A DNA stretch of 64,000 bases from Amphiscolops sp. MND2022. Lineage: Eukaryota. The position numbers and the translations under genes were made by a program. The notes under the pieces are model-generated. The model did not search any database. It saw only the letters and a list, made by a program, of their open reading frames with translations, and was not told the origin of the DNA. Position 1 is the stretch's first letter, and every line of letters begins with the position of its first letter. This document shows, piece after piece, positions 7,060 through 46,800 of this stretch. Where the stretch lies: NCBI GenBank assembly GCA_964187785.1, contig OZ076415.1:70370001-70434000 (forward strand). The letters are read 5' to 3'.

Positions 7060-10000
7060 TGTTAAAATTCATGTTTATTCTACACTTAGATTAATAAAGA
7101 GGCACAACACATAACTAAAAACAGATAGAATTCGTAAGAACAGTGGAGAATGATATTGACAAATATTGACACAATTGAAATGAATAAAGAAAGTCTTCCA
7201 AAATGAAAACGAATAATGACCTTGAGAAACCGTTAGCAACGTATATCAAAAAGATTTTCACAAAAAAGTTGAGTTTAATAAATTACGCGTCCCAGTCAAT
7301 CATGAGAGTATTTCAGGAATTGTTGACGGGTGAGTGGCGGCGCTTTAAAGTAATGCTAGAAGAAGTCAACGACTCATGTGCAAGCAACCAATTGAATGAA
7401 ATTTAGCGTCAGCACAAATCATGCGTTCTCATAAACAAAACATTGGCTCCCCATGGTTGACAGCAGTGACGACATCAATTCTGACGTAATGAGGGATTGG
7501 AAAGGAATGAGATGTCTGCGATTGAAAAGATATTAAAAAGAAAGTAATTGAAGTTCTACGGAAGATGAACAAGCATAAGCAGTGACAGCAAAAAAAACAG
7601 TCAAAGAAATTCGTTAAAGATTCAGCAAATAAAAAAAGGACTGCATTGTTCAAACAAAGCAAATGTCGTATAAAAAAATGACTGGATAAGAGTTCAAATC
7701 AGTAATTTCTAAAGATTCAAATAACATTTACCTGGGTTGACAAGGGGTAAAAACCAGGAAATGTTTCCGGATGATTTCGAGAATTCTTTCACTGTCAGCT
7801 CCTTCCTCTCTAAAAATATCGCAATCTGGGACATTGTGACCACCCATCGCACTTCGCATACCCGGTACTGGGCCAGTTTGTTAGACATAAGGTCTTGAAT
7901 AGCACTGATGTCAACTCCTAATCGCTTCACGTGTACAGTTTTTGATTAGTGTATAGCGGCATGGAGGATTTTACTGTCAGTTACACACAAGATCGGGCAT
8001 TCTGTTTACAACAAATATTTGAACATTTTGTTTAGAAGCAGAGCATCATTGAGGTCAGCCAAGAGAGCCAGAGCATCTGCTGCCAAAGTACTTCTGACAA
8101 TTCTATGAGTTCGTCGGGAGGCCCAAAAAATTGGATGAATTGGCGAGAACTGGGTATTCGTGGCGAAACCAATGTACCCCCCTGTGAACCACCATCTAGA
8201 AGTTTTTGGAAATAGGTGTCTGCATAATCAACAAGTCGGCCGAAATCTGCTAAAAATGCATTTTTCAGTTTGAAGGTTGTAGACTGGGCTTTCCGTGTAG
8301 CCTAATAAATTTCTAATGAACGCGGTAGGCTAGCGTTCCCCCTTTCTGACGACACAGATCTTGCTGAAAATCTCGAATCTGGTCTTGTTTGGCTCGAAAG
8401 CCCCTACAACTTCCGAAGAGCACAACAAGTTTCTGAAAACAGCTTTTTTGTTAGGGAGCACTATTAGTTTCGAAATTCACGAATCTTACTTCCTGACACT
8501 GTTCGGCATAGTTTTGTTGACTGACAGTTATGCCCTTCCGTATCTTACGGACAATCGTGGGAAAGATAGAGGACATTGAGATGCTCCTCCGACAATGAAC
8601 ACCTCGTTTAAGCTAGTTTTTACTTGTTCAATACTTTCAGGGACTCCGTCGAGAAAAAAATTATCGACATGTATGCAAACCATACATAAAAGATCCGAAA
8701 AGTGTCTCTTCACAAAGAAAGTGGGTCCGAAGCTGCAGACTTCGAAGTTTATCGCAGATAGTTCATCGCGAGCTCTCTCGTGCCAGTGTTTGGACGCATC
8801 TTTCAGCCCATAAACCGGTTTTTTTTCAATTCCACATCTTGGAAGTTGGTACCTCTTGCGGGGGTCGTATATAGACATCTCTATCAAAGGATATAGCCTG
8901 TAAAAATGTCGTTCTCATGTCCAACTGCGGTGCCCAATTTGCGAGGCACAAATGGAGAAAAACACCTTCAACGCTTCTCTTAATGCAGCTGGTGGTTCAC
9001 ATTGACAATTTGGCAATTGCTCGAGATATCCTTCCACAACCAGTCTGGTTTTAGGAATAAGCGAATCGTCATCGAGTGTTTTGACACTGACAACGCATCA
9101 TAGGCCCAAAATTGCGTGCATCTACTTCGGCGTATACCCCATTAGCTACCCAGCAGGATCAATTCTTGTTGCTTCGCCGTATCAAATACGGTCTGATTTT
9201 TCAGAACGAAGAGTTCAGAACGGTTTTGATTCCAGGAAGTTACATCTGTTTCAAAATCCAAACACACATTCTGTCCTTCTTCCCACAACGACGACAAACA
9301 CTGGAAATTGTAGCACAATTTGTTTTTTCTAGTGTTTTTGCCCGCTGGCAAAAGAATTGGGGCGGTAAATTTTTCAGTTGATACAAACGGATCCACCTCA
9401 AAATTGACCCCTGAATTTACTGTCTCGTCATCTTTTCTCTGACGACCCACATTAGCGTTGGTTTCTGTATGGGAAGTTTGCTCGCAAGACTCGGGTATTT
9501 GCTCGGGTATTTTCAGAAAGTCTGGCTGCGTCATGGTTTCGTTAGATCGATTCTCAGAACGAACGTTATCGTCATTGCTGTCGAATGCCATGCTCATGGT
9601 GGTGTCATCGTGCAATAAATCAGTTTCATGGAGGGGGAGCAGGGAGATTCATTGCCGCACAAAAACAACTTTTCCGTGAACACCAACGATTCTTGGCGGG
9701 CCATGCCACCTGGCATCAATCGAACGCTTGTGTACAACCACGTCACCATAATTGAAAGGAGCGCCTGATGAACGCACATTGTGCCTTAAAGCTCGCTTAA
9801 CTCGTTCGTTCATCCTTGTCTGCCATCAGAACACAAGTCTTGCATCTTGTAGAACAGCCATATGCTTCGAAATTGATGAAGAGGAAAGTTGGATACCAAG
9901 CGATACAATGCTCGAAGTGATATTAGATCGAGTATTTGGATTTCTTCTCAAAACAACTTAGGAGAAAAACCCGAAAACTTCGGGAGACTGTTCTTGACGA

Positions 10001-11735
10001 TTAACGCATAGGCGAATCATGTGTCTAGATCAATCTCTGTGTGATCTCGAGTGGCTTTTTCGAGCGTGTCTGTGTGAAGAGCATTATGTCTCCTGCAAGT
10101 TGAAGGATTAAGCAAACTCCTGGAATTTTTCCTTGCCAATTATTGGACAAAATGGCTCGTGAACGTGGTCCGAATAATAAAACCCAACACTTGATGTATT
10201 TTGGAATGACGACATTAGCAACCTTGCTGGATACGTTGATTGCCAAACTTAAACGCGAGAAAGCACAAATACAATGAAGGTACCACAAGTTTGGTCCCAA
10301 CTGATGTAAATCCATGCACACCAATGCGTTGAAATTAGTGACTAATGGACAAGAGACTACTGGATTCCATAGCGCTTTGTTCTGATGGTCGCAAACTTGA
10401 CAATTACCTACGACCGCCGAGATTTTCATGGCTGTGATCTTTTGGAATTCGGTGAGATTTGACCATTTCAGCAACATTGGCAGGTTGCCCGGGCTACAAT
10501 GACCGAACTGTTTGGGCAATTTGAGGATGTCTCAATCCAGTTTGAATTTCGCGGAATAAAACACAAGTTCTTCGGGACTTCTTGTGCTGAGCAAGGACTC
10601 CAAACAATGACGAGATTTCGTTTTTTTTGCGGTTTTACTGTCTGACCAAAAACTGTACATTCACCACGATCCAGGTCAATGACAATACCAGCTTTGGAGA
10701 TCGATGGTTTGATTTAAGAAAGCGGCAAGTCTCCATAAAGCACAGTGCCAGTAATAGTGCACTTATTCCCCAAGATTGTGAAGGTAAAACTGCTTCAAAC
10801 TTACCATAAACGTATCCAGTACAAGAAGTGTCTAGAATGGTTTTTCCAGAACATTCTTTCCAAAGTGTGGATCCTGGATTCAAAGCGTAAAATAGGAGGG
10901 ATTCTTTTCTTCTTTCCGCAGTTTGGGAGCTTTCCAAAAGGGCTGTATTTTCTTGGAATCGAGACTTCTTGACGTCGGATGATGGTTCTTTGTCTGGATA
11001 GCGCATCTCGAGATTTTACCTTTTCAGTTTCTTGGATTTTTCGTTTTGTCACAGCTGTAAAAGGTTTTCTTTCTTTTGCAAAAAAAAGATCCTGATTTGA
11101 TAGATGTGATAGATGTTGTGGCTACAGAAGAACCAAAAGTTCTTTCAATATCGCTACTGACAGTGGCGTATTCCAAATTGCTACAGGCACAGGGAATCAT
11201 CTGTTTCTCTCTTGTATCTAGTTCTGCTGATTCAATAGGCTTACACTTACGTCTGACTTGTACTGTTTCAACTAACGTCAAACTACTTGCGTAGATCCGA
11301 AGAATTCTTCTCGAAGCAGTTAAACTCCGGTCTGGTTGGCCTGATATCTTGTGAAAATCACGATAAGCCTCATAAACAGAATTGATGGCATTCTTCTGGA
11401 AATGCCTGTCCAATTTGGCCAATAGAGTAGTGACACCGTCATCTGCATTTAAATCTCCAGCAATATGGAAGTAGCGACATCACGGCACGTTCCAGGAAGT
11501 GATAGAGCGATCGCAAGGGCCTGTTTCTTCTTGTCAAGATTAGTAACGAGCTACCAAAATTCGATCTCTCGGCGCCAGGTTTCATAATCATGCTCAAGAA
11601 TCTCAGGAGGCGCTTTGTAACTCCTGCTATCATTTCTAAATTCCACGTTTATTCTATACTTGAATTAATAAAGGGGCACAAAACACACCTGAAAAGAGAT
11701 AGAGTCTGTAACAACAGTGCAGAATGATATTGGCA
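7060..11735 (-). mobile_element. Degenerate Ty1/Copia LTR retrotransposon with about 102-bp LTRs, inserted in the BEL integrase
   Basis: LTRs 7060-7161 (TG...CA) and 11633-11735; 5-bp TSD GAGCT at 7055-7059 and 11736-11740. Minus-strand order is PR (ILDTSC, about 10800), INT (QFGH...CQVC, MDLHQ, 10025-10519), RT (VYGLKDASKHW, IHVDNF, 8528-8887), RH (IVRSTLAAD, KRLGVDISAI), which is the Copia order. PBS-like TGATAGCAGGAGTT at 11619-11632. Confidence 0.9.
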
Positions 11736-14359: not shown

Positions 14360-15589
14360 TTTTTAGTCGGCGCTTTTAGAAAAGAGCTACTCATGGCCTA
14401 GTGGTTACCGCGAGGGGTCTGAGAAGAATGAGAATTTGTGTTCCAGTCTCGCACTCAACCATTTTTTCAGTTTTCAAAAGTACGGACGCGACCAAAGGAT
14501 CCCCCTTTAGATTATTGTCGGCACTGTGCGACTTTTGTTCAATTTTGACAGGCGACCATGGTCTTACTACAACTCTAGACATCAGTTTTTGTCCCAAAAG
14601 TGGTCTCCTAGGGTGACTTTCCTAACGTCGAAGTGACTCCTCATTTAGAGCTCCGAGGCGACGTGCTGGGGCATTCAAATCCGGACACGTTCCACAAGCA
14701 CTTAAAACGAGTCCCAAGATTTCTTCGACTTCCTTCATACTCCCGAGTTCAAAAAGGCATTTATTTGAAATAAATCCTATTCCTTTCCCTTTCTGTCTCC
14801 CGGAAACATCGTCATTGTCTGCTGGGTTCAAGATGGTACACACAGTGTCGTATCTCGCTTTTGGGGAAGATAAGTAGCTTTCTTGTTGACATCTGGACGC
14901 TTTTTCATTCTTTTTTTGTCTGGGGTGTTCTCTCGTTTTGTCCTAGTGCATCGTCTTCTGAACTGATTTTGGGGTACTTGCTAGGTCGGCCAAGTCACAA
15001 TTAGAGTTTTTCCAAAATTTCTTACAGGTACCCTGTCACAAGGCTGGTGGACGTTACACATCAATTGATGTGATTTCACTTTTGGCCTCTTTCTATATTT
15101 AGCAAGTGCAAAGCGTTTTGCGAGCAGAGAGGGCTGTTCGTTTCTGGCTCAATGCGACTTACCTATTTAAAAATTTCTCGTTGAAAAAAATTTATCGAAA
15201 TATTTTTCTCAATTTCTTTGTTTCTGAGGTTTTCTGAAAGTAAGACACTTTTGCAGTCCAACTGGTGACCTCGTTGATTATTTTTTGGTCATGTGAAAAG
15301 TATTAGAGTTTTCTCAGTAAGTGTGGAATTGACATGTGGTATTTTTTGGCACTGAGGAACTTCGACAGAAAATTGTCTTTGGTCAATGTCAACCCCTTTC
15401 ACTTTCTTGAAAGTTTTCAGCCTTTTTCAGTCATTCCACACCATATTAGAGTCCTATGTATGTGCAATGACATCAAAATCGTAAAACTAGGATCTGAGAA
15501 TCATTGAAAATATTAGTCAGAAAATCTTGAAAAATCCTGCGACAGTAAAGTAAATTCTTTCTTTGTCAATATTTTAATCCTTTTCCGCC
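14360..15589 (-). mobile_element. Long HINE-like family copy, tail portion (interrupted by the Gypsy element)
   Basis: TTTTTAGTCGGCGCTTTT (family tail, reverse strand) at 14360. The reverse complement of 14560-14960 matches blocks of the 32631-34316 unit (GAGCTCTAAAT, CCTAGGAGAC, GTTGTAGTAAG, GACCTAGCA). Confidence 0.55.
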
Positions 15590-16621
15590 TGTCGGAACGT
15601 GTATCAGATTCATTTGATGTGGTGACGTTAGGTACGTTCCCTTCTCTATTGCTAGAGGATGGCTTTTCATTAGACGATATTTTCTCGGTCAGAGCAAGAA
15701 CTAAGTTTGTCAGTTCATTTATTTGTCTAGTCATTTCAGTAAATCTCTGATTTACTACTCGACGTTCTGACTCGCCACTGTAATCCAATAAATTCCCGTT
15801 GTCAAACTCACTCATCTGTTCTCTCGTGAGAACTTCTGGGACACTGCTCTCACTTTCGGTATCGCTATGTCGATCTGTTCGGCACATGAAGGTATGCTGG
15901 TTGTCTGTTACTTGGGATCTCGTATTAACCATTTTGAAGAGATATTGGATTTTTGAGGTTGTATTGATTGATTATGAGAAAGGTTAAGTATTTTGGTAAC
16001 AAATCGTGTTTAACTGAGAGGTACGTACTTAGCAACTGTATCGCAATCTATCGCAAATTCTACTGATGTTACTATTTCACTTGGTAATAATTATGGCGAC
16101 GTTGGTCACGTGACCACATCAACCAATCATATTTCTATTTTTCGTTCGCACCTTTGTTAGTAATTGCGCAATATGGTCGCAGCTCCAAAATGAATGTAGT
16201 TACGTTGCTATGGTTACATGACTCAAATTTGGTATAATGATGTGGTTGCACTACTAGCATCATATATGTGAATGGTTAATGTATATAATTGTTTACATGA
16301 CTAACTGCACCAGAACGAAATCTGATGATGGTGTATCAGCCACATTACTTTCACTTTTAACTAAAAGTTCACGAGATTGATTTAAATAACATGCATAACA
16401 AATGTATGAAATATGGGAGATAATAGTAAAGTTATTTGGGGAATGAATAGAAATGATGCTTTTTAGCAGATTCGAGTTCGAGTTTTATGATGTGGTTGAC
16501 TTCACCACATTCTTCCCTTTCATCATCATTCTTTTACTGTTTTGACATTTTGTTTCTAGTTCAGGTATGCAGGATGGTTGACCACATCATTGTTTGATAT
16601 TTTCATGCGTCAGGCATGACA
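15590..16621 (-). repeat. Gypsy 3' LTR
   Basis: TG...CA termini; near-identical to 29820-30851 (about 6 substitutions by eye). Carries a copy of the first 114 gag codons, which explains the 15513-15932 ORF. Confidence 0.95.
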
Positions 16622-16754
16622 CTACGGGTCTTTTTTGAAAAAGAACATGTGGCTGAAATGGCGAAATGTCTCGTTCAGTTGGTTGGTAGATTGGACGCGG
16701 TATGCTAATGAGCAAGGTTGAAATTGCTGTATTCGTTAATTAGATTGAGCGCTC

Positions 16755-16930
16755 ATGTTGTTATGGTGACCACATTAGTAGTTGCGAGTTGACTTCGTGG
16801 TTGGAAATGAGCAGTGATGTTGTTATAGCAACAACATTGGTAGTGGCGGGATGACATCACGGTCGGAAATAAGCAGCGATGTTGTTATAGTAACCACATT
16901 GGTAGTGGCGAATTGATTTCGTGATTGAAA
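16755..16930. repeat. 62-bp tandem repeat, about 2.8 degenerate units
   Basis: ATGTTGTTATRGYRACMACATTRGTAGTKGCG recurs at 16755, 16817 and 16879. Confidence 0.8.
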
Positions 16931-17602
16931 ATATTCGAGTAGATTGTCGCTTCGGCTCGATATGGCGAGTGAGCGAAGAAAATGTTGGTCACGCATTGGC
17001 TGTTCCACTTCGGTAAAGAGTAAATATAGAGCCGATGTGGCGAGGGTAGCCACGTCATCCAATCGTGCGCATCGTTTGCAGTAAGAGAGTTAAAATAAGA
17101 ATGAATTTGCCGGAAATTAATCTAACGTGGCAGCGTCATATAATTACTCGGCTCATCCGGTAATCGTTCGGAAGTGGTTGTAGTGGAACATCGTGCGCTC
17201 TGTAAACAATTCTTCGTCGATGCCAAATACGAGAAGCAAAAATTTCTCCAGTATATTCTTTTGTGCGATTCTTCGGCAATTCAGTTCGGCCGCGGCTTAC
17301 TGAGTGATTGTATCAATGATCAAGTGGGCTATAATTAGGATAAGCCAGGGAGTCGTATTGTGATTTTGGAGGATTTTTCGGGTAGGCTTTGGCCCTTTTT
17401 GGAGTAGTGTGGTTGGTGAATTTCAGGAATTAGGTTATCCCTTTGGATTTTTTGGGTAGTTACTTTGCATAGACAATGTGGGTGATCAGTCCACATGATC
17501 ATTGGAAGTTACTTTGAACCTCAGTAAATCGCAAACGACTGTGTGCTTTCAGTTCAATAGCCTCAAGTTGATTACTTTTCAGACTTGCTTGTTATTACTG
17601 TC

Positions 17603-20600
17603 ATGAGTTCACCGGCGCAGGAAGGGCCGTCCCAGGCTGATGCAGAAGTAGCTGCAGTTGTGTTGGCAGCAGAAGGAGTGCTCACCGAGCTGGAGCAGTT
17701 CAGTTTCTCTTCGATAGGTAGTGAATTGCCTGCTGCTGTCGAGGAAGCCCTGTCGGGAGAGCGTTTTGGAACGTGTTGTCGCTTTGCGGGCAAGGTGACT
17801 GCTTCCAACAATGAGGCAGCTAACACGTTGTTGGAGATTGCGCTATCGAGTGAATTCCGTGAGTAGTCTCATTATTTCTTTTCTTTTGCCCTTCGCTGTG
17901 TGTAATTAGCGCTCAGGTAGTTTTGTAGGACAGTGACTTCCGTAGTCGTGGGTCACAAGTAGTTTTTTCGAAATAATAACCGATAAAGGTTATCTTTCCT
18001 TCAGAGCATTCTGAATTATTGTAAGCCAGTAGTATGTCGTTTGAGCGGTACTAGCATTGAGGCATGTGTACTTCCCGGGATCTAATGCTCTGGGTAACTG
18101 AGGAGGTGGCTAATGAGACATTATTGTGCTTCAGAAGATTTATCGCTTGTAGACGTCGTAAAGTTACTCCGCTCACTGCTGGCTTCGAAACGAGGTGATG
18201 CCGCGGGTGGTTCAGCCGAAATAACTGCTGTGGAAGATCGCTTCAGTTCCGTCCTTGCTGGTGAACTGGGTAAGTGGTCGGTTGTCATACATCATATCGA
18301 GTATACTACTAGTCTTGGTTCGGTGTTTGGGTCGGCTGTGGTCCGTATGTCGTGTGACACACGTCATATAGCGGAAAAACTGATTTGTGTTGTAGGAACT
18401 TCTGCTGGCGTGCCCGTGACAAGGGCTGAAATGGAGTCTTCGCTGGCACGAATGACGAAAGAATTGTCAGAGACAATCAACGCAGTAATAGATGCGAAGT
18501 TCGGAGAGTTGGGTCCTGCTGGTGTGTTGGCAATCGAAGACTGTGTGCAGAAGTTAAAGGCGGCTACGGACCAACTTGCGGGGGTTGCAACGACTTCTGG
18601 GAGCGGGGCGGATCAGGTCGTACCAGCTGTGCCTCCCGTTCAGTTGGAAGAGTCGATCAGTCCTGTGGCCGTTAGTAGTGCAGCGTCCTTCAGTCCAAGT
18701 CAGTTGTCCGATGTGCCAACTGCGTTCGGAGGAGTGCGGTCGTTGGTGTCGACGGGTGGAGGAGCTGCTACCTCATCAAAACCTGGTAAAGAATCTCAAA
18801 AGATCATGGGAGGGGTTTTAGTAACAGTTCCCAAACTCAAGGCATATAGGAGACTACACACTTTTTTTTGAAGTTAACGGGGGGTTAGGAGTCGTTGCTA
18901 GCACTATTTTGGGTTGCTGGTTTGCGTGTGAGTGTGTCGATTATTTCAGCGCGAGTGAGGAAAGTGAAGACGTTGAAGCCGTCATACTTTGTCTCAGGCG
19001 TGGTCGGGACTTTCGTGGGCTTCCCCCGACACAAACGAGTGGTGGATGGCTACGCTAGATGTCTCCTCTGTAAAGTAGATCTCAGCATTGCTGGGCGTGG
19101 CTTGTCTTCGTTGTGGGAACATTGGCGAGGCGTAGGACATACGCGCCTTGAGCAAAAGTATCGCATAATGATGCAAATGCCACTACTTGATAAAGCTTGC
19201 CGCCCAGTAACCGCAGAGGAGGATAGACGAATTCGCCAAGAAAGGATGACAGAGCCTCCAGTGTATCTGGAGTCCGAGTTGAGTTTGTCCGTGGATGAGA
19301 GGGTCGCGATTGAAGAGGCCGAAGCGTCTGCTGGTGAAAGACCAACATTGCCTACAGAGAGTGCGGCTTACCTGTGGTTAGGCCAATACATAAGCAGCTT
19401 TTGCAATGTTGCTTCGTTCGGTTCTGTGATGAGGATGGTGGAGTCATGGCGAGATGGTATGAGTGCTGAGCTACGTGTCGAGTGTCGCTCCTTGACTTAT
19501 GCCCGATGTCAGGTACGTATATACATTTGCTGTTTTTGGGCTTTAGTACTGAATGCGTGTTTGCGGGCTTTGGTTGTGAAAAGGGGGGGGGTTTCTTAAC
19601 GCGTTGATATGGGTACAGTTGTTTTTGTGTGAATCTATGAGGTGAAGGTGAGCTCCTCATTTGTGTGATTGGCTGTGTTTACAGAGTTTGGTGTTGTACG
19701 GACTGTACCGGTTCGTCGTCGAACAGTTGGACTGTCTGCTATCCCGTGGTAAGAACGTTGGTTTGAGCTTGAGAAGACAGAACTCTGATTGGATCTGTGA
19801 GTGTCATGTGGTCGGAGACTGCGCGATCAAGACTGTGGTTTTTGGCGTAGTGGCCGCCGGAGCTGGGTGGGAGACGAGTATGATTGCCAATGTAGCACCA
19901 GTGTTACTCAGTTTGCAACATGCCTCAAATATCAAGATGTACAGCACTGAGTCTGAGACCCGAATTGGACATGCTCTAGCAGCAGCAATTGGAATCACTG
20001 ATCCCTTGGTTGTCGGTCGAGTGACCCAAATATGGTTGTTGGATCTCGTGAGGAAGCAATTCCTAGCGGAATTTGGCGGTCTCGACCCACTCAGCGTGTT
20101 GGACTACTTGCGTGTTCGTTTAGCCGCTGTAGTGCAGGAGGGCTTCATGGATCGATTGCCGAAACTTAGACGAGTAAGTATTTGGCATTATCGTTTATGA
20201 TGTGGTTATGTATAGGACATTGGTTTGTTAATATATACACGGATATATTTTATTGTTTTTGGTAAATTGAAACGTTAGGTGCGTAGGCTATGACAGTAAG
20301 TAGATTATGTCAAACTTTCAGCTGTGTTTTGTTTTGCAGTTCATTCGCTTTGGAGGGAGTGATGTGGTTGTGTTGGCCTCATTGTGTACTGAAGTCGTTG
20401 AGCACTGGAATGATCTAGCTGTGTACTTTGGCACTCACAGGCCTAACGTGACTTCTGAGCTGCGTCTGGTTACTCCGCTTGAGGTGCAAGTTTTCGACGA
20501 TGCAATGATGCGCCCCCGGTTTGCTGTGTTACGACTCATTCTGGATTTGCGTTAGTTGTCACACGTTTCGATTTTTTTTTTGTTTTTTTTTTTGTTTTTT

Positions 20601-22096
20601 TTTTGTTGATTTTTTTTGTTTGGGTTTTGAATTTGGTGTGATGTAGTAAGTGGCTAGACATAGGCGCGGTTTTCAATATGACTCTTTTGGTGAAGTAATC
20701 CTAAGTCAGAAAAAAGAGGGTATGAACGCTGATTCATGTGTTTTGTTTTGTGTTTGCAGTAGTCGAGACTTGTCCGCGTTTGTGCAGAAGTGGCAGAGAC
20801 AGTAACATGTTAGCAGAGCGCGAGCTGTCACAATTCGTCCGAAAACTTATGTGTTTCGTGTATCCGCCTTCAGTGATCCCTGCGGAATTTGAAGTGAGAG
20901 CCCTGCTGACACCGGTAGACTGCGAGTACGCGACAGTGGACGAGGGCCTTTACAAGCTGCACTTCGGGCAATATTTCCGATACGACGTACGAACCCAGTT
21001 GCCGTTCTTTTATAGATCGGTTCAGAAATTGTTGGGCGTTGTTTGTCGGGAAGTAACAGGAGCATGGGAGCAAGGTGCTATTAGTCACTTTAGTATGACC
21101 CCGTTTGATCCAGAATTGATTCACAGAGGATCTGACGATCGGTGTATCGATGCTCTGGTTGGCACGTGTGCTACTCTGTCGAGATATCAACTCCTTGATG
21201 ATGACGATGTTACTGCTGTACTACGACAATATCGGGAAGTGACACAATTCTTCAAGAAGAAGTGGACGTTGACAGAAAATGCACCGGTAGTTGACGACGT
21301 GGTAACTATGTGGTTCTCTTATCCCTACTGGTCACGATGTCAAGAGTTGTTGACCGTGGTCAACATTCTGTTTGGGCTGAATGCAGTTGGGACTTATGAG
21401 CTAGATTTTGTCGATGATGTGGACGTTGCGATGCCGGTAGATACCCTACGTTCCAGTTTACATTTTGTTCGGAGTTGGCTTGCCAAGTCTTATGCGGGAC
21501 AGACGCGTCAAACTCTAACTGGATTGCTACGAGTGTGCGAGACGAGTGATATGCAGGTCACTCGGTTATCCGATGAGGCCCGAAGTAGACCATGGGATCA
21601 GCTGATGAAATCTGGGTTAGGGGAAGCCTTGGCACGTGGTAATGCTACTTTGTCCAATGAACTGTCACTCCCTACCACGGTGCAGATAGATGATTACCGG
21701 TCGAACGTATTGGCGCAACTTGATCTTGTGGAAGTGCTGAGTCCTCCCCGTCCCGGAAGGCGTAGCAGCCCGGTTCTTAAGCGTGGTACCTCAGTTAAGA
21801 AAGTTGTTCGGCGACAAGAAGACGTTACGTTGCCAGCAAGTGGATCTACCCCTATTCGGTCGTTGCAGCGAAGCAGGACGTCAATTCGGAAAAGTGTGAA
21901 GAGCGCAGTTCGTGAAGGGCCGTCTACAAGTCGTCAGTCTAGCGGGCGCCGGACTGGTGGAAAACCTCGGGGCAAGAAGTTTTTGCAGTTAGCAACCGTT
22001 GGTGACTCCGATAATGACTCGGCTAATGAAGTGGTTGTGAGTGGAAAGAAACGGCAAAGCCGTTGTGCACTATACTCATCGGATGAGCAAGATTAG
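17603..22096 (+). CDS. Spliced 1126-aa zinc-finger protein, probably hAT-transposase-derived, antisense within the Gypsy element
   Basis: Exons 17603-17858, 18135-18269, 18396-18785, 18950-19512, 19685-20173, 20340-20550 and 20760-22096 total 3381 nt, i.e. 1126 aa plus stop. All six introns are GT..AG (donors GTGAGT, GTAAGT, GTAAAG, GTACGT, GTAAGT, GTTAGT; acceptors CAG/TAG after T-rich tracts) with matching phases 1,1,1,0,0,1. Zinc finger CLLC-x16-H-x5-H at 19060-19140. ATTAAA at 22163. Confidence 0.85.
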
Positions 22097-23695
22097 AAGA
22101 AACTGGATAGAGAACATTTCGTGATTGAGTCAATTATTTTGCATTTGTTTTTTGTTTTTATTATTAAACGTTTGAAGTTGGGATATTTGTTCTTGGCATG
22201 TTGACGTGCCTTTTGCTGTTACTATTTGGTGTTTGTGTATTCCTCGCTCTAGATGCTTGATGGTTTATATGTAGACTTTACATGCGTTGTTTACATACTT
22301 TTAGTAGTGCTGATTGATTTCTTGGCTCAGCTTTGATTTCACGCGTGAGCAGGTGGTTAATTTACATGTTGCTTACGTTATACAAATTTTTTACATTGGG
22401 GCTTCGTTAGCTGGTTCAATTTGTCAGGAAGCTGAGTAGAGTTGTTTTTTGTTTCAGTGAGATTGTATGGTGGTTACTTGCCTAGCCACCAATTTAGACA
22501 GAGTTTCATTCACGGAGGTTTACCCACAGGTCTCGGAAAGTGGTATTGACGCCCTGTGGTTACACCAAGGTGAATGAACGGAGCTGCACCGCTCCTTCCC
22601 AATGATCGAACTAGATGCTTTGCATGCTATATATACTCTAAGTGCGTGTGTTTTAACTGGTGTTTACACGCATAAGTGTCATTCTAAGGTGTCAATCATT
22701 TTTTTTGTTTTGCTTTATATGTGTTGTTATACTCGTAAAATTGAGCGTTAGTTCTGACGTCGTCATCACTGATGTGTGTCATGAGACGTCATCACTCGTG
22801 ACGTGTGTCAAATGTTAACGTCAATTTAATGGAAGATGGGTTTCCCCATGTCCATTAAACAGATTTTTGTTCTCTTTTACAAGGGATGGTCTGATCCATC
22901 CCTTGTTTCGAGTTTTCGGGTATGTGGTGATAGTGACTACATGTGCTTTAAGTACCTTGTTCTTTCTGACGCGAGGCGAGGCCTACGAATCACCAGTAAG
23001 AACGAGGGTGTCACGACTTAATTGTCGGGTGAAGTTGGCGTGACGACTGCATGTTACTGTCCTTAAGAAGTTTCGCTTTGCTTTCAGTTCATTTGGAAGG
23101 TTATTTGCCGTCGCAAAAACCCATTCAAAACTAACACCGAATCCACTTGCCAAAGAGCAAGCTTCATCTGAATGTTTGTACAACCACACAGACGCGCTTT
23201 TGACGACGCACCCACACAGCCGAACCACATCATGGCTTTCTAGAGCGGAAGTGTGAGACTAGGTTCTGTTGACGTAACTTAAACGAGTCGGTGTTTTCTT
23301 TTTTGTACTCAACTATGGACTGAGACGTGTTTGAAAACAGTTTAGTTTAGCTGATTTAGGATTAGTGGGTGCAGAATTACCGAGCAATTCCTTTGAAAGT
23401 GTGTGGTTGGGATTTTTTGTGAATTGCATAATTTAGTAGGTCGTTTGTACGTGCTTTACATGTACTTAACAATTTCCGGTTGGAGTGATGTGGCGTATGT
23501 GACTGCATTTCATGTATTTACTTTAGCGCTCAGCTGTCTCGGTAGAGAGTAACATTTTACTCTGCCGGTAAACTTGAGTATGTAGGACAGTGAGTATCAG
23601 TCGTCACTGAATGGTGTAAAATAAATAGGATAATTCAATGGTATGATTGCTGCATGTGGTGATATAGACTACATTGTATTGATTGCATGTATTTT

Positions 23696-28626: not shown

Positions 28627-30162
28627 TTAGAAGTTTTTTGGATCTTCTACGTCATCGTGTCGTTCTGTTTCCTCAGCATCTTCGATGTCATCGTTGGCAG
28701 TGTGGGACATTTCATTGGCGTTGTAGACCCTACTGTTCGCCTGTTTGAAGTCCCTTCTAAATTGTCGGTTTTCCTCGGTCGATTGCTTAGGGTACGGGAC
28801 GCTTCGGTAGGCGTACGTCCCCGTGTTCCTGTAGTAGCAATCTCGGGCGGAGTATCCCACTTTGCCACAAATTTGGCACACAAGTTTGGGATTATATCTG
28901 GGCTTGATCTCTTGAGTTTGGGCGAGTTGGGTTGGTTGTTGCTGGTTTTGGCCCTGGGGTTTGGTTTGTGCTTCCTCCCGGAGGCGTTTCCTGCACTCAA
29001 CCCACTTGTGGCCATGTATTCCGCAGTGGCGACATTGGCCATCAAATTTTCGTTTTGCCTCCCTGGGTTGTTGGGTTTGGACGTTTGATGTCTGAGGTGT
29101 GGCTACATTCGGCTGGGGTGCGCTTATCTGATTGAATGGTTGCGCACTGGTTGTATTAGGAATGAGCTGCGCATATTGACATCTGCGCTGCACAAATGTC
29201 CTGATCTCCTCCATCGATGCATCATGTTTGCCTGCCATGGCCAAATCGTTTTGCATTTGAACGGGGAGTTTCGCAAATAGAAACGTCTCTGTAATATCGC
29301 TGGACTTGTCCCCAAATGCCTGCTTTGCGACTTTTTTGAACTTGTTGAGGAAGTCATTGAAGGTCTCTGCTGAAGGGTCGTAGCGCATCTGGTCGAATTT
29401 GTATTTGGCCACTTCCTTCAAATCTTCTTTTGCGTATTTCTTCTTGAAGTAACGCAGTACTTGGGCCAGTGTTGTCTGGTTCGTTATTTTCAGCGATTGC
29501 CAAAATTCAATTGCATCGTCGCGTAACAGGCTCTGGAAGTATGTCAGTTTCTGTTCTTCTGACAATTTGTGTTGGTGTGGCCTGAGGTGGTTGAGCAGCA
29601 GGTGCTCAAACTCGTTGTACTTTTCTCGGTTTCCGCGGAATAGTGGGACTTGTGTGTGCAAAATTTTTGGATGTTGCACCGTGTCCGTCATCGTGTCCCT
29701 CAGGTGGTGGATTACAGTGACAATGTCGTCGAACTGCTGAGCGGATGACTGAGGGTATTGTGAGGTGGATTGGCGTGGTGGGTTCGGTAGTTGGCTGGTT
29801 GTTGGAACTCCTGTTACCACGTCGGAACGTGTATCAGATTCATTTGATGTGGTGATGTTAGGTACGTTCCCTTCTCTATTGCTAGAGGATGGCTTTTCAT
29901 TAGACGATATTTTCTCGGTCAGAGCAAGAACTAAGTTTGTCAGTTCATTTATTTGTCTAGTCATTTCAGTAAATCTCTGATTTACTACTCGACGTTCTGA
30001 CTCGCCACTGTAATCCAATAAATTCCCGTTGTCAAACTCACTCATCTGTTCTCTCGTGAGAACTTCTGGGACACTGCTCTCACTTTCGGTATCGCTATGT
30101 CGATCTGTTCGGCACATGAAGGTATGCTGGTTGTCTGTTACTTGGGATCTCGTATTAACCAT
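28627..30162 (-). CDS. gag: Gypsy Gag (511 aa), initiating inside the 5' LTR
   Basis: Capsid-like region (FRGNREKYNEFEH, LLRDDAIEFWQ); zinc knuckle CRHCGIHGHKWVEC and variant CQICGKVGYSARDC. The ATG at 30162 lies within the LTR 29820-30851. Confidence 0.93.
   Translation of the reverse strand: MVNTRSQVTDNQHTFMCRTDRHSDTESESSVPEVLTREQMSEFDNGNLLDYSGESERRVVNQRFTEMTRQINELTNLVLALTEKISSNEKPSSSNREGNVPNITTSNESDTRSDVVTGVPTTSQLPNPPRQSTSQYPQSSAQQFDDIVTVIHHLRDTMTDTVQHPKILHTQVPLFRGNREKYNEFEHLLLNHLRPHQHKLSEEQKLTYFQSLLRDDAIEFWQSLKITNQTTLAQVLRYFKKKYAKEDLKEVAKYKFDQMRYDPSAETFNDFLNKFKKVAKQAFGDKSSDITETFLFAKLPVQMQNDLAMAGKHDASMEEIRTFVQRRCQYAQLIPNTTSAQPFNQISAPQPNVATPQTSNVQTQQPREAKRKFDGQCRHCGIHGHKWVECRKRLREEAQTKPQGQNQQQPTQLAQTQEIKPRYNPKLVCQICGKVGYSARDCYYRNTGTYAYRSVPYPKQSTEENRQFRRDFKQANSRVYNANEMSHTANDDIEDAEETERHDDVEDPKNF
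28633..28639 (-). promoter_or_regulatory. -1 ribosomal frameshift slippery heptamer A_AAA_AAC
   Basis: Gag ends CCA AAA AAC TTC TAA. The -1 frame (AAA AAA CTT CTA AAG...) is the pol frame and has no stop from 28651 to 23696 (translated by hand). Confidence 0.85.
29806..29819 (-). promoter_or_regulatory. Gypsy primer-binding site TGGTAACAGGAGTT
   Basis: Begins with TGG directly after the 5' LTR end. It resembles the complement of a tRNA-Leu(UAA)-type 3' end, but the tRNA identity is inferred. Confidence 0.8.
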
Positions 30163-30851
30163 TTTGAAGAGATATTGGATTTTTGAGGTTGTATTGATTG
30201 ATTATGAGAAAGGTTAAGTATTTTGGTAACAAATCGTGTTTAACTGAGAGGTACGTACTTAGCAACTGTATCGCAATCTATCGCAAATTCTACTGATGTT
30301 ACTATTTCACTTGGTAATAATTATGGCGACGTTGGTCACGTGACCACATCAACCAATCATATTTCTATTTTTCGTTCGCACCTTTGTTAGTAATTGCGCA
30401 ATATGGTCGCAGCACCAAAATGAATGTAGTTACGTTGCTATGGTTACATGACTCAAATTTGGTATAATGATGTGGTTGCACTACTAGCATCATATATGTG
30501 AATGGTTAATGTATATAATTGTTTACATGACTAACTGCACCAGAACGAAATCTGATGATGGTGTATCAGCCACATTACTTTCACTTTTAACTAAAAGTTC
30601 ACGAGATTGATTTAAATAACATGTTTACCAAATGTATGAAATATGGGAGATAATAGTAAAGTTATTTGGGGAATGAATAGAAATGATGCTTTTTAGCAGA
30701 TTCGAGTTCGAGTTTTATGATGTGGTTGACTTCACCACATTCTTCCCTTTCATCATCATTCTTTTACTGTTTTGACATTTTGTTTCTAGTTCAGGTATGC
30801 AGGATGGTTGACCACATCATTGTTTGATATTTTCATGCGTCAGGCATGACA
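29820..30851 (-). repeat. Gypsy 5' LTR
   Basis: Starts TGTCATG on the minus strand and ends CCGACG (CA changed to CG). Contains the palindrome GGTCACGTGACC and a CCAAT/ATTGG motif upstream of the gag ATG. Confidence 0.95.
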
Positions 30852-30856
30852 CCGCC

Positions 30857-32274: not shown

Positions 32275-32630
32275 AACAAGCCGGGAACAACCCAAGTCAA
32301 CGCCCGCTCAAGGCGCAAAAAGGGCTAAGAATCACTTTGGAAAATCTTCGGTGCTACTGAAATTTTTCTTCATATGAAAACAACAAAAAAAACTTGGGAA
32401 AAAGATGGGCACTTGGGAAAAGTTTCCAAACAAATTGCATAGTGTCAACATATTTCAAAAGGATCTTTTGCTACCTTTTAGTGCAATGATCTGCTTCCTA
32501 TACACGTTTTCGACTTGCTCAGTGATAATAATGGACCACGAACGAAGTTGAACGAAGTTAAAGAAACAAAGAACACTCGGTGTGAAGCTGAAAGCAAAAG
32601 AAAACAAGACGGGAACGTCTCAAGTCGGTG
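32275..32630 (+). mobile_element. Two adjacent HINE-like heads (32275 and 32603)
   Basis: AACAAGCCGGGAACAACCCAAGTCAACGCC at 32275 and AACAAGACGGGAACGTCTCAAGTCGGTGCCCC at 32603. Confidence 0.55.
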
Positions 32631-35600
32631 CCCCACTTAAGGCTCAAAAAGCACAAAATTTTTGAAAGAAGCTGAGATCTTTTTCAAAGAATGATGTAAG
32701 AAACAAATGTAAGAGTGCGGAAAACACCCAAAAAGAAACCTTTTCGCTCGGCAAACGTTTTTCGGGGACCCTTTGGTCCCAAATAATATTGAGGATAGTG
32801 TGTCCCCTTTAGCCTCGTTAGGTACTCTATAAAATGGATGCGTAAAATCTGTAATAAGATGACAATTCAGTGTGATTTCTCTGGTCTAACGAAAAAGAAC
32901 CTGCATAAAATCATAAGGAACACACCTGAAAACGAAAACGCTTTTCAATGCAGAAATATCAAAACAAATATGAAAAAAGGTTTCCACAAAAACCCACAGA
33001 GTGCCGCAGGTACTTTCGCAGATTGGTGAAAGTGTTTTAAAAAGTCTGACGGCAAGGGTTCAAACCCACGGGTCGTCTGCGTGTGAAAAAAGAACCGTAA
33101 CCACTGAACCACTTGGTGGACGCCACAGGAGTGTCGGGCAGGATTGTACAAAAAGTATGCACTGAAAAAAATTTAGTCAGTGTATTGGTCAGCTTTTTTG
33201 TAACGTCAACCAGTCCATGAACGAAATTTTTGAAAATTTCGAAGTATCACACAAAATGAAAATGGTCGACCTAGCAGGTACTTCGAATCAGTCTGGAATA
33301 CAAAAAAAAAAGAAAACAAGACAGCCCTCAACCCGAGAGAACACACACGCTAGCCCCATACACGCAGAGACGCCCCGGAAAACTGAGAAGTCACCGTAAT
33401 AGTGTGTGCCAAAGGAGAACGTCACGGTAGAAAATTCCACCAAAAAAAATGCGGAAAACCCGAGAAGCAGACCTCCGACTTTTGAACCGATTATGCCCAA
33501 AACACAAAATTCGCTGAATTACGGTCCATGGTGGTGCTTTATTTGTAGCTATCCCGAGTTGCCAGTGGTACTTTTTCAGGTATTTTATGATGTATGATCT
33601 ACTAGATCAATATTTTAGATCTTATTCCGCAAATTCAATTCCGCATTTCAGCTAATTGCCATTTTTGGACCTGGGAAGTATGTAGAAAGTTGCAGGAACC
33701 TTAGGAAACGTTTTTACGTGCTTGTGGGACGTATCGGAACTTTGGGAGCTCTAAATTGAGGTGTCTCCTTGACGTATGAAAGGTCCCCTAGGAGACATTT
33801 TTGGGAGAAAGACTAGTGTCCAGGGTTGTAGTAAGGTAACGGTCTCCTGTTTAAGCAATCTAGGCAATGTCCCAGTTCAAAGATGTACGCTACTGGCTTG
33901 ACGTTTCATCTAGAATAGTTTTTATGGCGACCACAGGGGGATCCTTTTACCTTTTTCGTCAGTCTTTTGAGTTTTTCTGCTTTCCGGCACTGAAAGGTTC
34001 GGATATAGGAAAAGCCTACGGGAGGGTAGAAGATTGTTTTATTTTTTGTTGCGAATGTTAGTCTTTTTTCAAAAAGGACTTTCGCGTGCGTTTCCTGTGT
34101 GTTTAAGAGGTCTGGCAAATTGAATTGACAGTTTTAAGCGATGTACCCTATTTGACGGAACAGTACCTGTGAGAAACTCGTATTCGGCTTAATAGGATTT
34201 TGTTTTAAAAATTTTTGAGCCTTGTTTAGCTAATTGTTAATGTACTGGATATGTCAGGACGTGTAGTGAAGGCTCCGATTGTTTTGGACGAGTTTGCGAG
34301 CATGGTGAAGACACTTCCCCACTTAAGGCTCAAAAAGCAGAAAATTTTTGAAAGAAGCTGAGATCTTTTTCAAAGAATGATGTAAGAAACAAATGTAAGA
34401 GTGCGGAAAACACCCAAAAAGAAACCTTTTCGCTCGGCAAACGTTTTTCGGGGACCCTTTGGTCCCAAATAATATTGAGGATAGTGTGTCCCCTTTAGCC
34501 TCGTTAGGTACTCTATAAAATGGATGCGTAAAATCTGTAATAAGATGACAATTCAGTGTGATTTCTGTGGTCTAACGAAAAAGAACCTGCATAAAATCAT
34601 AAGGAACACACCTGAAAACGAAAACGCTTTTCAATGCAGAAATATCAAAACAAATATGAAAAAAGGTTTCCACAAAAACCCACAGAGTGCCGCAGGTACT
34701 TTCGCAGATTGGTGAAAGTGTTTTAAAAAGTCTGACGGCAAGGGTTCAAACCCACGGGTCGTCTGCGTGTGAAAAAAGAACCGTAACCACTGAACCACTT
34801 GGTGGACGCCACAGGAATGTCGGGCAGGATTGTACAAAAAGTATGCACTGAAAAAAATTTAGTCAGTGTATTGGTCAGCTTTTTTGTAACGTCAACCAGT
34901 CCATGAACGAAATTTTTGAAAATTTCGAAGTATCACACAAAATGAAAATGGTCGACCTAGCAGGTACTTCGAATCAGTCTGGAAAACAAAAAAAAAGAAA
35001 ACAAGACACCCCTCAACCCGAGAGAACACACACGCTAGCCCCATACACGCAGAGACGCCCCGGAAAACTGAGAAGTCACCGTAATAGTGTGTGCCAAAGG
35101 AGAACGTCACGGTAGAAAATTCCACCAAAAAAATGCGGAAAACCCGAGAAGCAGACCTCCGACTTTTGAACCGATTATGCCCAAAACACAAAATTCGCTG
35201 AATTACGGTCCATGGTGGTGCTTTATTTGTAGCTATCCCGAGTTGCCAGTGGTACTTTTTCAGGTATTTTATGATGTATGATCTACTAGATCAATATTTT
35301 AGATCTTATTCCGCAAATTCAATTCCGCATTTCAGCTAATTGCCATTTTTGGACCTGGGAAGTATGTAGAAAGTTGCAGGAACCTTAGGAAACGTTTTTA
35401 CGTGCTTGTGGGACGTATCGGAACTTTGGGAGCTCTAAATTGAGGTGTCTCCTTGACGTATGAAAGGTCCCCTAGGAGACATTTTTGGGAGAAAGACTAG
35501 TGTCCAGGGTTGTAGTAAGGTAACGGTCTCCTGTTTAAGCAATCTAGGCAATGTCCCAGTTCAAAGATGTACGCTACTGGCTTGACGTTTCATCTAGAAT

Positions 35601-36005
35601 AGTTTTTATGGCGACCACAGGGGGATCCTTTTACCTTTTTCGTCAGTCTTTTGAGTTTTTTCTGCTTTCCGGCACTGAAAGGTTCGGATATAGGAAAAGC
35701 CTACGGGAGGGTAGAAGATTGTTTTATTTTTTGTTGCGAATGTTAGTCTTTTTTCAAAAAGGACTTTCGCGTGCGTTTCCTGTGTGTTTAAGAGGCCTGG
35801 CAAATTGAATTGACAGTTTTAAGCGATGTACCCTATTTGACGGAACAGTACCTGTGAGAAACTCGTATTCGGCTTAATAGGATTTTGTTTTAAAACTTTT
35901 TGAGCCTTGTTTAGCTAATTGTTAATGTACTGGATATGTCAGGACGTGTAGTGAAGGCTCCGATTGTTTTGGACGAGTTTGCGAGCATGGTGAAGACACT
36001 TCCCC
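32631..36005 (+). repeat. Near-identical 1.69-kb tandem duplication of a long HINE-like body
   Basis: CCCCACTTAAGGCTC at 32631 and 34317; both units end GAAGACACTTCCCC (34320, 36005). Identical short ORFs are offset by 1684-1686 bp. Confidence 0.92.
33047..33118 (-). other. tRNA-derived (Val-CAC-like) A/B-box cassette, not a functional tRNA; second copy at 34733-34804
   Basis: Minus strand: GTGGTTCAGTGGTTA (A box), TTCACACGCAGACGACC (anticodon-arm-like) and GGGTTTGAACCC (B box). No paired acceptor stem. Confidence 0.5.
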
Positions 36006-43886: not shown

Positions 43887-46800
43887 TGTTGGGGCCTGAA
43901 CTCCTGATCGTGTCTGGGTTGTCGAATTTTTGAACATTGAATTTTGTCAATACTGTAATTTGAAATGTGTAATGAGAAAGTGATTCAGTCAAGTGAAGAT
44001 AAAAATAACAGGGACGTGTTTACAAACAGCAAAAATAAAGTAAATTTCTTAACATTCCGAGGGTCGTTGGTGGTTGATGATGGCGAAGTACTGTGCTTGA
44101 TCATCTCTTGTGTCAAGGCAGCAGTTGAGAGGGCTCTAACCATCAGTTGCAGAGAAGCTGAAGGTCGTCATGGTCCTACTTGTAAAATAAACATAAAAGT
44201 AGGTAAAGTAAAATAATTGAGTTGTCAGGGAGGCGATGCTTGAATTGAGGATTGAAGTGACTGAATGACAAAGAGTTGCGATGAGAACTCATTGAAAGCA
44301 GGCTTGCGTAGGTTCTTGGTGAAGATATCAAGCAAGTTGTTCTTTTTGGAGACATAAGACAGTTGAAGGCGTTTGTCCTCAACCAGGTGACGGATGAAGT
44401 GGTGTCGGGTTTTATTGTATTTAGCACGTTTGTGGGCGAAAGGGTTGCCTGCCAGTACGAGTGCCCGTTGATTGTCACGACACAACGGAACAGCCGTGTC
44501 CACCGTCATGAAGCACAAGAATGTGAGCAGGCCTTGCAAATAGACTGCTTCCTGTGCAGCGAAAGAAGACGACACATACTCGGCTTCACAAGACCTAAGT
44601 GCCACGCACCCTTTTTGGACGCCTAAGAGACAACGTTACTAAACCGAATCAGTTTGAAGAGAAAACCCGAAGTTGACTTGCTATCAACTTTGTCGGTGGC
44701 CCAATCAGATTCCGAAAAACCAAAAAGTTCGAGTTTTTCAGAGCGGTTATTTACAAGAGATAGAGAATCGGTGCCTTTGACAAAACGGAGAAGGTGATTC
44801 AATGCACACCAATGGGCTTTACCGGTATTTGACACAAATTGCGCTAAGTTATAGACATCAAAGCAAATGTCAGAGCGACTAACAACGGACAAATACATTA
44901 CGTTTTCAACTAAGCTACGATATTGTTTCTGTGAAGTGAAAACTCAAGTGAAGTTTCACTACCTTTGATGGGCTGTCCAATTTAGACTGTTTCGTATGGG
45001 GTACACCTGGCGTTCTGACTGGTTTACAATCGGACATATGGTTTTTGCGCAAAATGTGCTTTATATGACAGCTGACTAAGAAAATGCGACCGCGTGACTG
45101 TTCAACATTGCATCCCAAAAACCAAGTCCTTTTTCCAAGATCATCGATGCTGAATGCATCCCTGAGTTTCGCTTTGAAACCATGCAGCATTTTGTCGCTG
45201 TTTGCAAAGTACAAAACGTCGTGGACTCAAACAAGTACAAAAAGTTCGGAACCATTGGTCCCATTGCAACAAAAAAGGCAACAATGCTCGGCCAATTGTT
45301 AAGGTTTTGTTCCGTTCCCTCCCTGTTTGCTTTAAACCATAAAGGAGTTTTTGAAGCTTGCAAAAAAGTAATTCACCATTAGCCCCCGCTTGCGCGAAGC
45401 CATCTGGTTGGTTTATGTCAAATTCATCAAGTTCGCATTGAGGAAGGCTGAACAGACGTCCAACTGAAATACGAAACTCAACCAAGAAGCAGCGCGCGCA
45501 AAACATATCCTCAATGTACAAGGTTTGACAGTACGCGCAAAAGTTTTATCGTGTTCGCTCCCAAAAACTTGTGAAATCTCTTGGGCTACGAAACGAGGCT
45601 TGAATTTCTCAACAGTTCCGTCGTCGTAAGGCCTAATTTTGAAAAGCCACAAGCTTCAAATTGCTTTTCGGCCCCGAGGAAGCAGAGAAAGCACCCAGAT
45701 CATTTCTCAAGGAGAGCAGTGTACTCCGTTCCAGTAGCTTCGATCCATTCGCTTTTAAGCGATGACTTCATTGCTTCACGCTAAGTAAGATTCTGTTATC
45801 CGTTGATTCTGACATCGCTGTTATCCGTTTAAAGAACGTAGTCGTCGATATACGGTGAAGGTGGGTTTGATAACTCTCCCAATTCGAGACCGAGAAAAAA
45901 CATTTCAGATGAAAAAACATCAACGGAGGAAGGAGTTGTTTCAGTTTCGAAATCCTTCAATGTTTCAGTCGGTAGAACAGGATCTGAAGACTTTTCGCAA
46001 AAAAAGGTATGTGTTTTAAGCAAAATTTGTTTTGGTGCCGGTTTTTCGGCTACAAATGCTAGGATGTTTTGACTTGGGTGCGCAGCAAAAGAGTCAAAAA
46101 AAGTCTCATCAAAGGAGACGTTGCGAGAAAACGAAGTCTTTTTAAAAGAAGAATTGTACAAAATGTATGCTTCGGAATCCTCAGAATAACCAACAAAAAC
46201 TTCTTTGGTGGCTTTATTGGAAAGTTTGTCTTTATTCGTTTTGATGTGTTTGAAAGCAGTACGTTTCCAAAAACTTTCAAATCGGAAAGATCTGGTTTTT
46301 CACCAAAGAACATTTCGAATGGCGTTTTACCTTTTGGTAAACTGTGAGGCAACGATTTGAAATGTAAAACGCAATGTGTGAGGTCCGAACCCAGAATTCA
46401 TTGCCGAGTTTGGCAGTATTTAGCATGCAGCGAGGCATTTCGCCTGTTGTTCGCCAGCGACATTCACTGATACCAATTTGCTGAGGCGAAAAATTGGCCT
46501 TAAGATATGATCACGTTTGATTCGGATTGATATACAAAAATATACAAAAACTCGCAAAGACTTGGATATGTACTCTTTCCAAATATGAGAATGGATTGCT
46601 CTGGGCACTCCCATTTGCGCACAAGCATTTTTGATTTTATCTAGGCACTCATCCTTCGATTTGAGGAAATATACCACTGAGTACCTGCTGTAGCTATCCG
46701 TAAAAGAAATCGCGTATCGATTACCATCAAGCGAAGTAGTTGGCATCGGTCCCAAAACGTCAGTGAAAACGAGATCAAGTTTCGAAGATTTGTTTCTCCA

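Follow-up and report, generated by a model that had tools for sequence, protein, structure and literature searches.

Gag codons inside the long terminal repeat of a Ty3/Gypsy clade in Amphiscolops sp. MND2022

Across a clade of Ty3/Gypsy retrotransposons in the genome of Amphiscolops sp. MND2022, comparison of the elements showed that the last 310–586 nt of the long terminal repeat (LTR) read as the first 103–195 codons of gag. The clade is represented here by a copy in the window, by which the whole stretch of DNA analysed is meant (64,000 nucleotides of contig OZ076415.1, positions 70,370,001 to 70,434,000). LTRs are usually deemed non-coding control regions, and in the family of the window copy about a third of the LTR is selected coding sequence. 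It is likely, in our judgment, that this is a young copy of a clade in which Gag starts deep in the LTR, that the coding stretch belongs to U5 and that its further copies are passengers.

Under this model, transcription would begin about 80–160 nt upstream of the gag ATG, and ribosomes would scan a short, ATG-free, unstructured leader to the first AUG. In most close families, poly(A) cleavage in the 3′ LTR would fall just before the ATG, making the coding stretch U5. It would be present only at the 5′ end of the genomic RNA, be copied into minus-strand strong-stop DNA and, as a side effect of reverse transcription, appear a second time in the 3′ LTR. Selection would act on it only via replication, and the copy in 3′ and solo LTRs would most likely be a passenger.

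The window element and the spread of its layout

The two LTRs of the window element (Table 1) differ at 6 positions over 1032 nt. An alternative boundary, GT...AC with the duplication AGGCG, was dropped; the siblings have TG...CA ends and 5-bp duplications. The domain order PR-RT-RNase H-IN, LTRs of the TG...CA type with a short duplication and a tRNA primer-binding site (PBS) were all found, as in Ty3/Gypsy elements (Metaviridae), and the integrase does not precede the reverse transcriptase, the order of Ty1/copia elements (Pseudoviridae). In the window pol, which is in the −1 frame relative to gag, RT, RNase H and IN lie above the Pfam cut-off; the protease match is weak and falls below it. 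The best solved relative of this pol in the PDB is Ty3 Gag-Pol (E 7e-45). The RT relatives listed bear no informative names and point to no named Gypsy clade. For the core fold of Gag, the best matches are Arc, dArc and HIV CA, none of which reaches E ≤ 0.001; zf-CCHC is detected in Gag relatives, and the zinc-knuckle Cys/His columns are invariant in the Gag family comparison. Between 16622 and 23695, the longest own-strand frames span 105–116 aa from stop to stop and the long frames are antisense; the window element does not have the make-up of an envelope-carrying (errantivirus-like) Gypsy. As in the Ty1-type layout, gag begins at a codon within the 5′ LTR and runs without a stop across the LTR end and the PBS. 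On the features tested, the window element belongs to Ty3/Gypsy, and its layout is a known one in an extreme, conserved form. Three 62-nt repeats (window 16746–16931) adjoin the 5′ side of its polypurine tract.

Table 1. Features of the window element (window positions; signed offsets are relative to the gag ATG, except +28, which belongs to the initiator)
Feature	Position	Strand	Remark
Complete LTR retrotransposon	30851-15590	-	young Ty3/Gypsy copy
Target-site duplication GGCGG, 5 bp, left copy	30852..30856	-	
5′ LTR, 1032 nt	29820..30851	-	TG start, CG end in window copy
Candidate core promoter	30263..30296	-	initiator-like TCAGT (A at 30294, −132), AGTTG at +28
Putative 5′ leader zone	30163..30332	-	G-poor, unstructured
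Candidate poly(A) signal position (−33)	30190..30195	-	AATACA in window
LTR-coded Gag N-terminus, 114 codons + 1 nt (343 nt)	29820..30162	-	
AATAAA in the coding part	29948..29953	-	overlaps Gln-Ile-Asn codons; not conserved beyond subfamily
PBS, 13 nt	29807..29819	-	complement of tRNA-Leu(CAG) 3′ end; one mismatch in window copy; read in-frame as Gag
gag ORF, 511 aa	28627..30162	-	capsid-like helical core and two zinc-knuckle-like motifs
Candidate −1 slippery site A AAA AAC	28633..28639	-	immediately 5′ of gag stop; putative role
pol from first Met, 1549 aa	23696..28345	-	PR-RT-RNase H-IN
Antisense frames	17561-22096, within 16622..23695	+	antisense to element
3′ LTR, 1032 nt	15590..16621	-	TG...CA ends
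Second Gag N-terminal frame, 3′ LTR, 139 aa	15513..15932	-	114 LTR codons + 25 flank codons
Target-site duplication GGCGG, 5 bp, right copy	15585..15589	-	

An earlier note, made from the letters of the window, had placed the gag ATG at 30162 within the 5′ LTR with 114 LTR-encoded codons, and this was confirmed, the ATG lying 343 nt before the LTR end. The residues RSDVVTGV that it had read across the LTR end and the PBS are indeed those of the window frame. The 139-aa ORF that it had taken as a second copy of the Gag N-terminus in the 3′ LTR is present, as are the plus-strand TTTATT motifs that it had listed at 15718 and 29948. The open frame is not a chance one: over 112 codons, the gag frame has 0 stops and the other two sense frames have 8–15, and 18 of 20 sibling 5′ LTRs keep the gag frame open as far as the LTR end. 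Among 319 candidate matches in the own genome, the 40 that were scored comprise 20 close 5′ LTRs and 20 other LTRs, numbers that are lower bounds. Nearly all sibling 5′ LTRs (19/20) end in CA and read D-M-V-T-G; the CG end and the V are found only in the window copy. Judged from these copies, the junction V of the window is a private change, and the family junction is D-M-V-T-G. Three siblings (L007, L016 and L018) share a long block of mostly synonymous gag differences at LTR-based positions of about 1274–1982, which by its pattern is a recombinant capsid region from another subfamily.

The earlier note had also called for a check of the frame in related families, and there it is conserved: gag starts 310–586 nt inside the LTR down to 27% Gag identity. 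The 114 LTR-coded residues have at least 150 matching places at 57–100% (150 scored of 2565 candidates). Among 20 candidate pairs, 15 are 5′/3′ LTR pairs that have a PBS and in which gag starts 322–343 nt before the LTR end; one of the other five has no PBS, one is partnerless in its stretch, and three are duplications or nested pieces. Four of the 15 usable pairs are broken in the LTR-coded part or shortly after it. In Gag families at 36–58% identity, the ATG lies 310–331 nt before the LTR end in 10/10 elements, and in two families with 27–28% Gag identity over the capsid region the distance is 568–586 nt, seen directly in 5/8 pairs (the remaining three comprise one internal duplication, one pair cut by the end of the stretch and one without a called ATG). 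In all families, the LTR ends in CA and is followed by TGG in the same frame, giving the junction (D/N/H)-M-V-T-G. Nine distinct distances between ATG and LTR end were found, all of which keep the frame. These counts reflect mostly intact copies, since the elements were chosen for good Gag matches, and they are non-independent counts from related sequences, with no unrelated Gypsy clade of the same genome in the set. The clade's junction motif is kept in P0060, which has no match in the own genome (G000) at E ≤ 1e-200, and no relatives outside the own genome were found in metagenome scans.

Selection, leader and the encoded segment

The LTR-coded part is under purifying selection, as judged from codon comparisons. 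Its dN/dS is 0.08–0.14 in eight pairs and 0.26 in one (9/12 pairs were computable, the other three being saturated), and it is 0.07–0.10 in all three pairs of the long-LTR family. These values are similar to those of Gag parts outside the capsid core. The low dN/dS spans codons 2–87, including codons 2–39; the last 25 LTR codons show less synonymous change, with a dN/dS of 0.55–1.2 in 3/6 pairs. A strong excess of third-position change was seen in the LTR-coded part of several families. In the frame control, the other two sense frames, with their 8–15 stops, gave a dN/dS of 1.2–3.5, and the antisense frame that shares the third positions also has a low dN/dS but contains stops. Among 20 sibling 5′ LTRs, private changes comprise 21 non-synonymous and one stop against five synonymous, and shared changes seven non-synonymous against six synonymous. 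Since the private changes look neutral, selection appears to act during replication and not after insertion.

These results bear on whether the LTR frame is translated at all, or whether Gag initiation takes place at the junction Met, with the open LTR frame no more than a relic or an accident of composition. The latter reading might draw on the searches of Pfam and the ESM Atlas with the 114 residues, which gave nothing usable, but it has to contend with a dN/dS near 0.1, the third-position excess in several families, the frame control and the preservation of the frame at all nine offsets. It is largely refuted by the dN/dS values, the frame control and the offsets, and we regard it as very improbable.

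The window copy has no ATG between 30349 and 30162, and 22 related sequences contain 3 ATGs at −170 to −1 of the gag ATG against 44.8 expected; upstream of −170, ATGs are not depleted. From purifying selection and this depletion taken together, the LTR-coded part of Gag is very probably translated, and the selection makes a start at the junction Met alone very unlikely. Both observations argue against the two outcomes that the earlier note had named as refuting its view, namely a transcription start downstream of 30162 and initiation at a later Met. The LTR-coded part shows no special RNA structure (z −0.4 to −1.0).

The transcription start would lie upstream of the gag ATG, between about −160 and −80. 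According to divergence change-points, the conserved promoter-like sequence stops 80–157 nt upstream of the gag ATG in 8/9 pairs. In one distant family, a TATA box lies at −139. The combination of an initiator and a DPE was rejected as proof of a promoter; the exact spacing of the two occurs in just 2/23 elements, near the shuffle rate of 0.045. An INR motif is named in the accessible part of PMC3601003. One 5′ LTR (L099, on G000:C13) carries a 451-nt duplication; it resumes 104 nt upstream of the gag ATG and has a single additional G there. This restart, a single event, lies 35 nt behind the TATA box, and the additional G may be a cap that was copied, which would mark where the RNA begins.

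A pyrimidine stands at −3 of the gag ATG in many relatives, and leaky scanning from the LTR ATG to later Met codons is possible. The weak −3 base is one of the points in favour of two Gag forms: a long form initiated at the LTR ATG and a shorter form initiated at the junction ATG, which consists of the LTR-end A and the TG of the PBS and would be reached by leaky scanning or used as an internal start. The junction ATG, in a context of purine at −3 and G at +4, is present in 19/20 siblings and in nearly all families. The integrase end and the tRNA complement, however, dictate this ATG, and no conclusion on initiation can be drawn from its conservation. Moreover, three in-frame Met codons precede the junction in the window copy, and the window copy, L037 and L043 have no junction ATG. 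The production of two forms is held to be rather doubtful.

The AlphaFold model of the long Gag has disordered residues 1–54, a helix at 54–87, a linker across the PBS and then a capsid-like core. The helix is predicted with moderate confidence (pLDDT about 55–72). Residues 1–54 are acidic and rich in Ser, Thr and Asn, and the LTR-coded segment is acidic in all nine families printed. In the helix region, the hydrophobic spacing is kept across Gag families, and this spacing, together with the structure model, points to a coiled coil. The segment is probably a domain in matrix position ahead of the capsid, predicted to form an oligomerising coiled coil. The N-terminal motifs M-V-x-T-R-S and L-R-x-G-K presumably resemble nucleosome acidic-patch anchors of viral proteins, which we take as a lead only; a literature search for a paper on those motifs as acidic-patch anchors found none.

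Poly(A) signals and the primer-binding site

The earlier note had described an unusually long coding R/U5. The long coding stretch stands; a role as poly(A) signal for the AATAAA within it is not supported, since a hexamer at −31 to −41 of the ATG is better conserved. An A[AT]TAAA occurs there in 12/14 close elements (shuffle rate 0.055 each), although the surrounding leader is only 55–80% alike. For this reason, the coding part is likelier U5 than R and is probably to be read as U5 on these comparisons. If the upstream hexamer is the signal, cleavage would occur immediately upstream of the ATG, which would put all of the coding stretch in U5. More distant sequences have the upstream A[AT]TAAA in just 1/13 cases. 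In retroviruses, the poly(A) signal in the 5′ LTR must be ignored, as this layout would also need.

Alternatively, the translated LTR frame may lie largely in a long R, with cleavage downstream of the ATG, e.g., behind the AATAAA at 29953, which comes close to the view of the earlier note. That AATAAA is the only canonical hexamer in the window LTR and occurs in 19/30 sibling LTRs, and the upstream position holds merely the weaker AATACA in the window subfamily, so the coding AATAAA may be used there. Some A[AT]TAAA is found within the coding part of 8/27 elements. These coding hexamers vary in place and track the codons; the one at 29953 is replaced by AATAAG in 7 sibling LTRs and has a counterpart in 0/13 other close elements listed. 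The coding AATAAA lacks the conservation seen upstream. A long R, and with it a genomic RNA carrying the frame at both ends, is considered unlikely, though still worth weighing. The borders of U3, R and U5 need RNA data, as stated in the accessible part of PMC3601003. A mapping of U3 and R via linkage among 20 siblings gave no border, the copies being recombined throughout.

The PBS is judged real: L013 and L050 have, directly behind the LTR, 18 nt copied from the end of tRNA-Leu(CAG), an outcome that plus-strand strong-stop synthesis would give, and one of four loci called by ARAGORN in the own genome is a tRNA-Leu(CAG) gene whose 3′ end is complementary. One set of letters serves as integrase end, primer site and Gag sequence at once, and Gag residues can be altered when the tRNA end is copied anew: in L013 (1/20 siblings), the 18-nt tRNA-Leu complement changes three of them, from VPT to VGS. 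In L050 (G000:C5, 5′ LTR), a full LTR and the 18-nt tRNA-Leu copy are fused to sequence starting a few bases upstream of the gag ATG, and the LTR-coded segment is duplicated in frame at this junction. It looks like a plus-strand strong-stop mis-jump near the expected cut site of the upstream poly(A) hexamer. The tRNA-Leu 3′-end pattern has 833 matches, most of them apparently within a long tandem array at about 35.59–35.64 Mb of G000:C8, which has a 296-bp period and contains the tRNA-Leu 3′ end.

Copies in other LTRs, related systems and neighbouring features

Because the promoter, the leader and the ATG would all lie within the LTR, 3′ and solo LTRs might express an N-terminal peptide or a fusion, an output that the earlier note had proposed, and this might have a function, for example, as an assembly brake or as host fusion genes. 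Four clear solo LTRs with a target duplication were found among 20 unpaired matches examined. The conservation of the frame in solo LTRs, a check proposed by the earlier note, was seen in three of the four, which keep the ATG and a frame open to the LTR end that stops within 7–26 codons; the fourth stops at codon 62. In L025 (955–1842, reverse strand), the frame of the 3′ LTR continues for 181 codons into a chimeric ORF of 295 aa, in frame with an extension that by eye resembles P0196, the Gag-like N-terminal frame of another family. The extensions of 3′ LTR frames into the flank otherwise span 2–29 codons (8/9 read, the 181 codons being the ninth), as in unselected DNA, and the private changes in 5′ LTR copies look neutral. 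A functional peptide or fusion from these copies is quite improbable, and passenger status is preferred for them. Either way, a start codon ready for translation stays behind in the host genome with every solo LTR.

In the element pairs window/L032 and L039/L040, U3 is close, the leader and the LTR-coded part are distant, and gag behind the PBS is close again; L037/L038 are uniform, and L045/L050 share the LTR and not the interior. At third codon positions, most change-points map to LTR positions 930–1020 and others to 1145–1390 (25/78 pairs with p < 0.01, the pairs being non-independent). Part of this clustering could stem from the reduced synonymous change over the last 25 LTR codons. The right-hand change-points of close pairs scatter from 904 to 1216, and the elements are mosaic elsewhere too. 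An exchange of a cassette of leader and Gag N-terminus via strong-stop DNA between co-packaged RNAs is only suggested by these patterns. A broader conjecture, in which the LTR is a portable Gag-N cassette swapped as a block and 3′ and solo LTRs act as promoter–leader–ATG units giving in-frame fusions or a trans-acting helix peptide that limits copy number, is given little credence. If it were true, a brake on capsid assembly would grow with the number of LTRs.

Protein-coding sequence in an LTR is known from HIV nef and MMTV sag, accessory genes that lie in U3 and are expressed from the 3′ end. In contrast, the downstream LTR part of the window clade encodes the beginning of the main structural protein in a frame that continues past the LTR end. 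The closest likeness is with Ty1 of S. cerevisiae, a Ty1/copia element in which GAG starts in the 5′ LTR and the PBS is coding; according to the accessible text of PMC5454406, Ty1 has a 53-nt 5′ UTR, a PBS at RNA nt 95–104 and a 334-bp LTR. On the same text, about 13 Ty1 codons lie in the LTR against 103–195 in the clade, a stretch 8–15 times longer here, which upholds the earlier note's claim that it far exceeds that of Ty1. The clade further differs from Ty1 in its superfamily, with pol in the order PR-RT-RH-IN, in its primer (tRNA-Leu instead of the initiator tRNA-Met), in its LTRs of about 0.9–2.2 kb and in the predicted helical element that the LTR encodes.

With Ty3, Tor of Oikopleura and Cer1 of C. 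elegans, all Ty3/Gypsy elements, the clade shares the domain order, a Gag with a predicted capsid-like core and zinc-knuckle-like motifs, TG...CA ends, a tRNA PBS and a 5-bp duplication. Tor and Cer1 have extra genes beyond gag and pol (accessible parts of PMC4402516 and PMC10309623); the extra ORFs of the window element are, unlike theirs, antisense, and no long coding LTR is described for Ty3, Tor or Cer1 in the portions of these sources available. The rice elements Retrosat2, RIRE3 and RIRE8 are likewise long-LTR Gypsy elements in which additional, rapidly evolving coding sequence precedes gag-pol, but their ORF0 is a separate ORF upstream of gag-pol and is not placed inside the LTR in the accessible text of PMC3485330. 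The available portions of PMC4402516, PMC13524379, PMC7175516, PMC2774666, PMC6238403, PMC3485330, PMC2844528 and PMC10309623 describe no long coding LTR. A search of the open-access literature by exact phrases, which covers neither Repbase-type reports nor supplements and is weak evidence, found no report of a comparably long one. Annotation that seeks gag only behind the PBS would lose 20–35% of these proteins, and coding constraint would bias insertion ages estimated from LTR divergence between families.

Each of the 18 downstream stretches of related elements contains one or more antisense frames of at least 200 aa. One antisense ORF has a BED-like Cys/His pattern, with zf-BED matched in 3/8 members (best E 0.09), and it may be a captured DNA-transposase-like gene. 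The predicted fold of a 429-aa antisense protein is poor (mean pLDDT 36). Elsewhere in the window, a tandem duplication of about 1685 bp (32602–35956) has copies that are 98–99% identical, and decayed ORF fragments at 8528–11006 and 45141–46746 read like integrase and RT pieces of other retroelements. At L088, a 570-aa sense ORF (7476–9185) of the size of the P0255-family Gag lies directly behind the 3′ LTR of an element from another family.
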